The translations under genes and the position numbers were made by a program. From positions 1 through 23,719 of IMG/VR virus record IMGVR_UViG_2671180296_000011: DNA of 23,719 nucleotides. One strand, 5' to 3'. The first letter of the stretch is position 1. Each line of letters begins with the position of its first letter. The notes below the pieces were generated by a model that was given only the letters and a program-made list of their open reading frames with translations, had not been told where the DNA came from and searched no databases. This DNA comes from a virus. Lineage: Duplodnaviria > Heunggongvirae > Uroviricota > Caudoviricetes. Below are positions 18,565 to 18,912 of this stretch, piece after piece.

Positions 18565-18912
18565 ACACCATCACCTGCTTGTGCTCTTTGCTCTGTCATA
18601 TGATTTCCTTGGATCGTTGGGGATATCCAGATTATACAGATTTCCTGTCGTTGGGGAATGACGGAAACCACCTCGCCTGACGTGGTTAAAAGCAGGCACA
18701 CAACACGAAAGCGCACGGCGAAGTTCGTCTCACTGCACGGTGTCGTTAAATTTAATTCGACCGTGCGCTTCCGGTTGTGGCGACCCGCGAAATGGCGCGG
18801 CGGTAAGTATGGCGGGGGTGGGAGGGACGCCTTTCCCCGTTGAGGACACCGGGTTGTCAGGTTGACCATACGCTTAAGTGACAACCCCGCTACAACGCCC
18901 TCTGTTATCAAT

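Follow-up and report, generated by a model that had tools for sequence, protein, structure and literature searches.

A conserved pseudoknotted RNA domain forms the 5' part of the DicF small-RNA precursor and recurs ahead of unrelated terminator hairpins in other phages

The G+C-rich segment in front of dicF in a Qin/Rac-like lambdoid prophage is an untranslated leader on the + strand, and the conserved core within it makes up the structured 5' part of a small-RNA precursor cassette of ~190 nt. The prophage sequence was analysed in a window of 23,719 nucleotides (the whole stretch of DNA under study), which covers part of the element with its dicBF-type early-left operon. The best explanation of the segment, which we regard as rather probable, is that an RNase III site is joined to the structured 5' domain of this precursor cassette. 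It is already known that the region is a processed DicF precursor, that its processing depends on RNase III and RNase E, and that the P1 annotation notes a resemblance to dicF. The fold with its pseudoknot, its start at the RNase III end, its wider distribution and its role as a shared front end were not found in Rfam 15 or in the literature searched.

DicF is among the oldest known bacterial small RNAs, and for 35 years the 190-nt form has been regarded as no more than an intermediate. The RNA derives from the dicBp polycistron (Ragunathan et al. 2023, confirming Faubladier et al. 1990; PMC10448788), in which RNase III cleavage yields the 5' end of the 190-nt species and RNase E the 53-nt DicF sRNA (PMC10448788). 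Inactivation of RNase E leads to accumulation of the 190-nt form, which is stable and persistent in stationary phase, and the K-12 sequence holding the RNase III site is printed in Fig. S1B of the same study (PMC10448788). The literature treats the ydfC-dicF region as a processing intermediate (PMC10448788), and DicF itself is the founding example of the 3'UTR-derived or intra-operonic Hfq sRNAs released by RNase E (PMC9438474).

Results

The early-left operon of the prophage is laid out in Table 1. Pfam matches to HTH_3, P22_Cro, DUF1391, DicB and DUF1482 were found in the order expected for a dicA/dicC-ydfABC-dicF-dicB-ydfD operon, and the leader of the window is interrupted upstream by a reverse-strand insert, which lies between the ydfC-like gene and the leader. 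The sequence-only reading had described a GC-rich, highly structured segment at 18640-18912, immediately upstream of dicF and containing three inverted repeats. All three repeats were present, both in the sequence and in the output of a repeat finder; G+C was 0.59-0.61 over 18675-18899 and 0.32-0.50 in the flanks; and the Rfam DicF model (RF00039) matched 18914-18965 on the + strand with 73.8 bits, directly downstream. Repeat 1 pairs CGAAAGCGCACGG (18706-18718) with CCGTGCGCTTCCG (18761-18773), with arms of 13 nt that are 92% complementary and 42 nt between them. Repeat 2 (P1 in Table 1) was found one base to the left of the position implied earlier, and repeat 3 (P3 in Table 1) has 9 bp with 100% complementarity. 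The left end of the described interval, with 18640-18660 and the separate small hairpin at 18666-18687, lies outside the RNA fold. Positions 18640-18660 belong to a repeat-containing region upstream of the reverse-strand gene, and the hairpin is common to loci with reverse-strand inserts. Only about 18614-18705 travels with these inserts. The suggestion that the structures had been introduced with the neighbouring insert was mistaken for the fold, since K-12, P7 and Ayreon carry the fold without the insert.

Table 1 Features of the dicF locus. Positions are those of the window; paired strands are separated by a slash, and percentages give the share of pairs formed among homologues.
Feature	Positions	Strand	Evidence and remarks
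P22-Cro-like gene	16593-16871	-	Pfam P22_Cro
DicA-like repressor	16898-17305	+	Pfam HTH_3
YdfA-like (DUF1391), YdfB-like and YdfC-like small ORFs	17406-18029	+	
119-aa ORF	18205-18564	-	phrog_6315, function unknown
Small upstream hairpin	18666-18687	+	AACCACCTC / GACGTGGTT, 4-nt loop
Long helix, 5' arm	18699-18718	+	CACAAC-A-CGAAAGCGCACGG; putative RNase III substrate
Long helix, 3' arm	18761-18779	+	CCGTGCGCTTCCG-GTTGTG; predicted cut ~18772/18773
Conserved structured core	18772-18899	+	Covariance model R1, 132.3 bits, E 1.7e-32
P0	18774-81 / 18889-96	+	GGTTGTGG C / G CTACAAC; 93.3% paired
P1 hairpin	18785-89 / 18796-800	+	CCGCG-AAATGG-CGCGG; 97.5% paired, zero two-sided changes
Px	18802-04 / 18848-50	+	GGT / ACC; 100% paired
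Pseudoknot	18807-12 / 18866-71	+	GTATGG / CCATAC; 99.4% paired
P2 hairpin	18813-17 / 18835-39 (18813-18839)	+	CGGGG ... CCCCG, variable pyrimidine-rich loop
P3 hairpin	18851-59 / 18879-87	+	GGGTTGTCA / TGACAACCC, 19-nt loop with pseudoknot 3' strand
Single-stranded linker	18897-18913	+	Ends at predicted RNase E-made DicF 5' end, ...TATCAAT↓ATTCTGG
DicF sRNA with terminator hairpin and U-run	18914-18971	+	Rfam RF00039
DicB	19142-19330		Pfam DicB
YdfD-like gene	19327-19518		Pfam DUF1482; exonuclease next

Folding of 18640-18912, a check proposed with the earlier description, gave a modest result: the segment folded somewhat better than shuffled sequences (z -2.3 on the + strand, -2.9 on the - strand), and 2 of 200 dinucleotide shuffles folded as well. 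Thermodynamics alone is weak evidence, so the case for the repeats was built on comparison with relatives. The Rfam search that had also been suggested returned DicF alone, both at the gathering threshold and at E<=10, with no family match in 18500-18913 at the latter setting, and no tRNA or tmRNA was found by ARAGORN (18500-19100) or in Rfam. The RF00039 model, with its 52 positions, covers only 18914-18965, and the core therefore lies outside the DicF family proper.

A covariance model, R1, was built on a structure derived by hand, with 12 gap-free sequences as seeds. The model gave one full-length match, and no more, in each of 93 loci, scored the K-12 copy at 154.7 bits, and returned a single match (18772-18899) when the whole 23.7-kb window, cro-side operon included, was searched with the filters off. 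The core occupies 120 model positions, and its length of 128 nt in the window results from 8 extra nt in the P2 loop. Pair statistics were taken on 89 distinct homologue sequences. Over P0, P1, the pseudoknot, P2 and P3, 95.5% of 2888 pair cells were paired and 11 pairs had changed on both sides, the nested helices being aligned by a model that already contains them. The covariation score was 0.146, against 0.079 in shuffles (0/500) and at most 0.081 when the partners were slid; independent covariation events are few, because the homologues, which come from enterobacterial phages, are close relatives of one another. P0 showed a change from C-G to U-A at model positions 10/110 together with 44 U·G and 51 G·U pairs, and it was not convincing in P1/P7-type members. 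In P2, four of the five pairs had changed on both sides, and pairing was kept in the versions CGGGG/CCCCG, CUGGG/CCCAG, CAGGUG/CACCUG, CUGGU/ACCAG and CAGGGG/CUCCUG; the insertion of 8 nt in the loop of the window copy is purine-rich. Model positions 78/102 of P3 were U-A in 70 sequences and C-G in 19. The invariance of the P3 loop is partly by construction and so inflated, as two retrieval keys lie inside it; members retrieved by BLAST (P7, P1, F1055) show the same P3 loop.

Px and the pseudoknot stood outside the model and were therefore unfitted. Together they were 99.6% paired, with one covarying pair each: the varying pair of Px was U-A in 82 sequences, C-G in 6 and U·G in 1, and that of the pseudoknot was U-A in 67, C-G in 14 and U·G in 8, and was never unpaired. 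The C-G form of the pseudoknot pair occurred in P1-type phage-plasmids and, separately, in one Qin-type locus (L274). A direct scan of IMG/VR found no C·A at the varying pseudoknot pair, and IMG/VR scans for the pseudoknot with a 3' pyrimidine or a 5' purine returned zero family members. A mutual-information screen mostly picked up the separation of the P1-type clade from all other members, and it served only as a pointer to Px for that reason.

Several other pairings were rejected. GCGGGG (18812-17) with CCCCGC (18885-90), which is in the MFE fold, was dropped because the P1-type P2 goes to CUGGG/CCCAG without a matching distal change. An H-type knot between the P2 loop and a downstream GAGGA was set aside, the GAGGA stretch being neither conserved nor covarying, and a pairing within the P3 loop (UUGA/UUAA) was broken by CCUGAG variants. 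An apparent compensatory change in P3 of two loci (L030/L117) turned out, on re-indexing, to combine a U·G wobble with a C·A mismatch and was left out of the count.

These comparisons bear on what kind of sequence the segment is. There is very little chance that it is coding, a minus-strand RNA (the 5' leader of the gene at 18205-18564) or a DNA-level protein-binding site. Open reading frames do overlap it (18658-18843 and 18740-18865 on the + strand, 18498-19031 on the - strand), and some phage records annotate a "hypothetical protein" there, but the overlapping ORF is without a Pfam match and the P2 loop differs by 1, 3, 4 and 8 nt among close relatives, a length variation that rules out the coding reading. 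Folding gives the minus strand a slightly better z-score; on that strand, however, the 44 U·G and 51 G·U pairs of P0 would turn into C·A or A·C, and the core is present in loci that have no reverse gene. The U·G and G·U pairs of P0 thus identify the + strand as the RNA. The many wobbles are sensible only in + strand RNA, and the protein-binding DNA site raised earlier found no support.

It is also improbable that the stems lack a specific fold and act simply in processing or decay, or as a structured spacer against Rho, their conservation being a trace of the recent common ancestry of mosaic phage modules. Such a reading would suit the 85-95% identity of most homologues, the modest z-scores of single-sequence folding and the long untranslated gap from ydfC to dicB, which would otherwise be exposed to Rho. 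It fits poorly with the presence of the same ~100 nt in lambdoid and P1/P7 genomes with unrelated flanks, with the compensatory changes in P2, P3, P0, Px and the pseudoknot and the lack of C·A in IMG/VR, and with a core that stays constant next to an RNase III hairpin loop and sRNA seeds that are free to diverge.

Repeat 1 extends through CACAAC (18699-18704) and GTTGTG (18774-18779) into a helix of ~19 bp with one bulge and one mismatch, and both arms are formed in the MFE fold. In Qin-type loci the arms of this helix are conserved and its loop of 42-45 nt is variable. The RNase III cut was placed in two ways. Counting 190 nt back from the 3' end of DicF led to position 1532/1533 of the K-12 locus (L001), and counting +813/814 from the start of the consensus dicBp (-35 TTGACC, -10 TAATCT, start near ~720 of L001) led to the same position. 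Through the model alignment this corresponds to model position 1/2 and to 18772/18773 in the window, so that the mapped cut falls within the 3' arm of the ~19-bp helix, one nt before P0. From its pairing and its position, repeat 1 is very probably the RNase III duplex.

The earlier proposal that the repeats might be processing stems thus fits one of them. Repeat 1 is the sole long duplex, and its 3' arm ends at the mapped K-12 RNase III 5' end, but repeats 2 and 3 are P1 and P3 of one multi-helix pseudoknotted fold with covariation support, and for these two the alternative offered at the time, a separate structured RNA, came closer to the outcome. Conservation and covariation, named earlier as the check on the stems, gave a divided answer as well: the helices of the fold covary, whereas the helix of repeat 1 showed no compensatory changes, its arms being nearly invariant and the few single changes being wobbles or mismatches.

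The stretch GUUGUG (18774-79) has two mutually exclusive partners, CACAAC upstream (18699-704) and CUACAAC downstream (18890-96). In the MFE fold of the uncut region GUUGUG takes the upstream pairing, and the MFE fold of the post-cleavage window RNA reproduced P0, P1, Px, P2 and P3. Because the stretch pairs upstream in the uncut RNA and downstream, in P0, in the cut RNA, cleavage by RNase III may switch the transcript into the compact fold. In two deletion variants (L013, L057) the 5' strand of P0 is missing along with the RNase III hairpin; together with the weak P0 of the P1/P7 members, these variants indicate that P0 and the RNase III hairpin are not essential to the domain. At the other end of the precursor, the 5' end of DicF made by RNase E was placed by K-12 homology and by the start of the Rfam DicF match, and the dependence on RNase E was taken from PMC10448788.

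Part of 18560-18970 was matched in 4316 of the 5426 complete E. coli genomes, and a K-12 derivative showed 91.7% identity over 18741-18970 of the window (megablast), which corresponds to the ydfC-dicF spacer. A core of ~125 nt (about 18774-18904) also occurs where there is no flanking homology. In P7 it directly follows the C1 operator/promoter of the ban operon, ahead of tRNA genes; in P1 the GenBank record labels it "dicF-like region"; in Ayreon-/Stx2c-type lambdoid phages it lies ~290 nt after a pL-like promoter; and Salmonella phage F1055 carries it too. Pattern scans of IMG/VR added about 200 further loci. A search of 596 Gb of genome contigs with the 15-mer CAGGTTGACCATRCG gave at least 120 matches, mostly random, and among the matches listed there was one true member (E. 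albertii, L154).

Downstream of the core, a hairpin with a T-run was found 50-100 nt after P3 in all loci with enough 3' sequence (208/208). The linker-plus-hairpin falls into at least 11 unrelated sequence classes, among them the canonical DicF, the Ayreon/Stx2c type, the P1/P7 type and the F1055 type, and the Rfam DicF model does not reach the Ayreon/Stx2c-type module. A constant core beside at least 11 linker and hairpin classes indicates a unit in three parts: a structured front end, then a single-stranded seed that varies, then a terminator.

Discussion

The favoured explanation, an RNase III site joined to a structured 5' domain, can be put as a sequence of steps. The ~19-bp helix (18699-18718 / 18761-18779) would be the substrate of RNase III, and a cut at ~18772/18773 would give the 5' end of the ~190-nt DicF species. 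From about this cut, the domain of ~120 nt (18772-18899) would fold as P0, P1, Px, P2 and P3, with the pseudoknot joining the strand between Px and P2 to the loop of P3. Formation of P0 may bury the new 5'-monophosphate end, while the RNase E site would stay exposed in a short single-stranded linker, where cleavage 14 nt past the domain would release the 53-nt DicF. The outcome would be a stable ~190-nt reservoir with controlled release of the sRNA, and the domain would act as the portable front end of a phage sRNA cassette made up of a conserved fold, a variable seed and a terminator. As its biochemical role we infer end protection or ordered maturation, set against termination control. A mere protective cap seems to have no obvious need for a pseudoknotted five-helix fold that is conserved across unrelated backbones, and this seems to weaken the cap role.

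Termination control in cis is the first of the other roles to be weighed. The core might be a put-like processive antiterminator acting on RNA polymerase, or a riboswitch-like aptamer, that sets the choice between stop and read-through, an account we consider unlikely; the targets of read-through, with the same low likelihood, would be dicB, ydfD and the exonuclease here and the tRNA genes and ban in P1/P7. On three unrelated backbones the core belongs to an early operon under repressor control; an intrinsic terminator always follows closely downstream, with same-strand genes beyond it. Its place near the promoter in P1/P7 resembles that of putL, read-through transcripts are known in K-12 (PMC10448788), and no N-like protein was found downstream in the Ayreon type. 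The likeness to putL and putR of HK022, which are also structured early-operon RNAs upstream of terminators that need no dedicated protein, is nevertheless one of position only. The put sites are ~70 nt long, have two stem-loops and no pseudoknot, and occur in both early operons (PMC9378689); the window holds one copy of a pseudoknotted five-helix element of ~120 nt that is excised by RNases, and with the filters off no second copy was found in the early-right operon. The core has no similarity to HK022 putL: comparison with the pL-nun region of HK022 gave only a 9-nt coincidence (GCGCGGCGG), and R1 had zero matches there (L127). As for a riboswitch, an aptamer-like fold and a terminator are present, but zero Rfam riboswitch matches were obtained and an alternative pairing was not seen across the at least 11 classes; with linker and terminator changing from class to class beside a constant core, no conserved antiterminator pairing is evident. 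The Qin-type element also lies far from its promoter, ~0.8 kb in K-12 and 1.4 kb in the window, and is excised by RNase III, whereas in P1/P7 the fold starts ~35 nt after the start of the C1-controlled ban promoter.

It is likewise doubtful that the core is an autonomous trans-acting RNA, in which a 5' fragment of ~135-140 nt or the whole 190-nt RNA binds a protein or targets; pairing with targets, for instance through the pyrimidine-rich P2 loop, would be an equally doubtful form of this. The core is conserved more widely than the sRNAs attached to it, and it is compact and pseudoknotted in the way typical of RNAs that bind ligands or proteins. Although its stem covaries, the P2 loop stays rich in UCC/CUC throughout, and the 190-nt RNA persists as a stable species in stationary-phase cells (PMC10448788). 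Against these points, the literature is without a report of a stable 5' fragment, and the sequence of the P2 loop is variable and is partly masked by the insertion in the window. The constant linkage to a 3' sRNA module, moreover, argues for a relationship in cis. A further reading, to which we give little weight, sees in the core a class of autonomous phage RNA device not described before. Bound to RNA polymerase, to a host factor or to a small ligand, it would govern the fate of early transcripts by setting the balance between a stop at the sRNA terminator, which yields the sRNA, and read-through into the early genes (dicB and the exonuclease in lambdoids, the tRNA genes and ban in P1). It would also be a constant "socket" for sRNA seed modules swapped by recombination.

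We return to the precursor cassette and its known relatives. One is the leader of the ~190-nt DicF species in K-12 (Faubladier et al. 1990; PMC10448788), whose core (L001 1532-1651) is homologous to 18772-18899 of the window, lies likewise between a ydfC-like gene and DicF, and by homology is flanked by the same RNase III and RNase E sites. The window differs from K-12 in its reverse-strand gene insert, its different upstream hairpin (18666-18687) and the longer P2 loop. The "dicF-like region" of P1 (misc_feature 68791-68892, AF234172) and its counterpart in P7 share P1, Px, the pseudoknot, P2 and P3 of the core with 54.7-69 bits, and again a hairpin with a U-run follows; they differ in having no RNase III hairpin, no convincing P0, a 3' module unrelated to DicF, and tRNA genes and ban downstream. 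CpxQ, SroC and SdhX resemble DicF in that RNase E frees the sRNA from a longer mRNA and an intrinsic terminator forms its end (PMC9438474), but their precursors lack a covarying pseudoknotted domain that lies upstream of the cleavage site and is shared between different seeds. HnrS (EcOnc10-12), a prophage sRNA encoded among late genes, is unrelated.

A covarying, pseudoknotted fold of ~135 nt that starts at the RNase III end and is attached to at least 11 sRNA bodies in lambdoid and P1-like phages suggests that selection has kept the long form, or the 5' domain within it, for a job of its own. If this is true, regulatory RNAs would be expressed and exchanged by phages through a shared structured front end. 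The homologue alignment is a ready seed for a new RNA family. In P1/P7, the distance from the transcription start to the terminator would make the primary transcript unit ~185 nt long, which is the size of the processed species in K-12.

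Natural variants of the structured core

Two of the compared loci have lost the P0 5' strand of the conserved pseudoknotted core and the hairpin preceding it (Table). In both variants, the deletion junction falls within the short repeat CGCGAAA, which is found in the 5' arm of the RNase III hairpin as well as in P1. The presence of this repeat at both places and at the junction suggests that the deletions arose through recombination between the two copies. The core of phage vB_Apl-pPE4 is truncated at its 5' end, with the P0 5' strand absent and P1 halved, and the whole sRNA module lies in tandem duplicate 3' of the core (CCCGCCACAACAACCCATGTTGATTACC...CCCGCCCTTTTTAAAGTGAATTTTGTGAT, twice). 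The record gives Actinobacillus as the host of this phage, yet the region is E. coli-like. At the DicF locus of Aeromonas phage AP1, the structured core was absent. The AP1 record is that of a T4-like jumbo phage, and its DicF copy is accompanied by an E. coli Qin-type 3' flank (AAAGTGAATTTTGTGATGCGGTGAATGCGG...); either this stretch was acquired horizontally or the assembly is chimeric.

Genomic surroundings

In the Ayreon/Stx2c-type phages, C4 antisense RNA and isrK are located ~2.3 kb from the core, beyond the repressor genes; here a lambdoid backbone carries an immI-type module like that of P1. In the ban operon of P7 (L002 2650-3110) and P1 (L345 ~810-1257), the sRNA-like terminator is followed by ~450 nt without an annotated gene and then by the first tRNA gene. 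Within the window, a reverse-strand insert precedes the DicF leader. Its 119-aa product belongs to phrog_6315 (unknown function), with two predicted hydrophobic segments and no Pfam match. The TATAAT and direct repeats upstream of the insert ORFs look like the promoter and operator of the insert. Relatives of segment 18614-18705 are present in Klebsiella, Shigella SfIV and other phages.

Table. Features of the window and of compared loci
Feature	Position	Strand	Remarks
119-aa ORF	18205-18564	-	between ydfC-like gene and DicF leader
33-codon ORF	start 18599	-	good Shine-Dalgarno AAGGAA; overlaps start of 119-aa ORF
TATAAT, perfect	~18634-18639	-	upstream of both ORFs
Direct repeat TCGTTGGGGA, two copies	18614-23, 18648-57	-	upstream of insert ORFs
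Direct repeat GATTTCCT, two copies	within 18205-18660	-	upstream of insert ORFs
Direct repeat pair TATCCAGAT/TATACAGAT	within 18205-18660	-	upstream of insert ORFs
STnc100	4648-4846	-	Rfam search, 148.7 bits
sok antitoxin RNA	11776-11950	-	Rfam search, 116.3 bits
Two tRNA genes	5681-5754, 5859-5931	-	
Deletion variant	L013 1624-1764	-	no RNase III hairpin or P0 5' strand
Deletion variant	L057 5226-5342	-	no RNase III hairpin or P0 5' strand
vB_Apl-pPE4 (PP818812.1)	L346 2484-2790		5'-truncated core, duplicated sRNA module
DicF copy, AP1	L348 1497-1640 (MT713136.1 ~249900-250045)		DicF 94% identical
C4 antisense RNA + isrK, Ayreon/Stx2c-type	L003 40-228, L004 39-227	-	Rfam

The 9-mer GTTGAGGAC just 3' of P2 (18839-18847) recurs at 19127-19135, the site bearing the dicB Shine-Dalgarno; chance alone would give ~0.2 matches of this kind across the window, so the identity may be without meaning. 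The sok RNA is presumably part of a hok/sok-type module.
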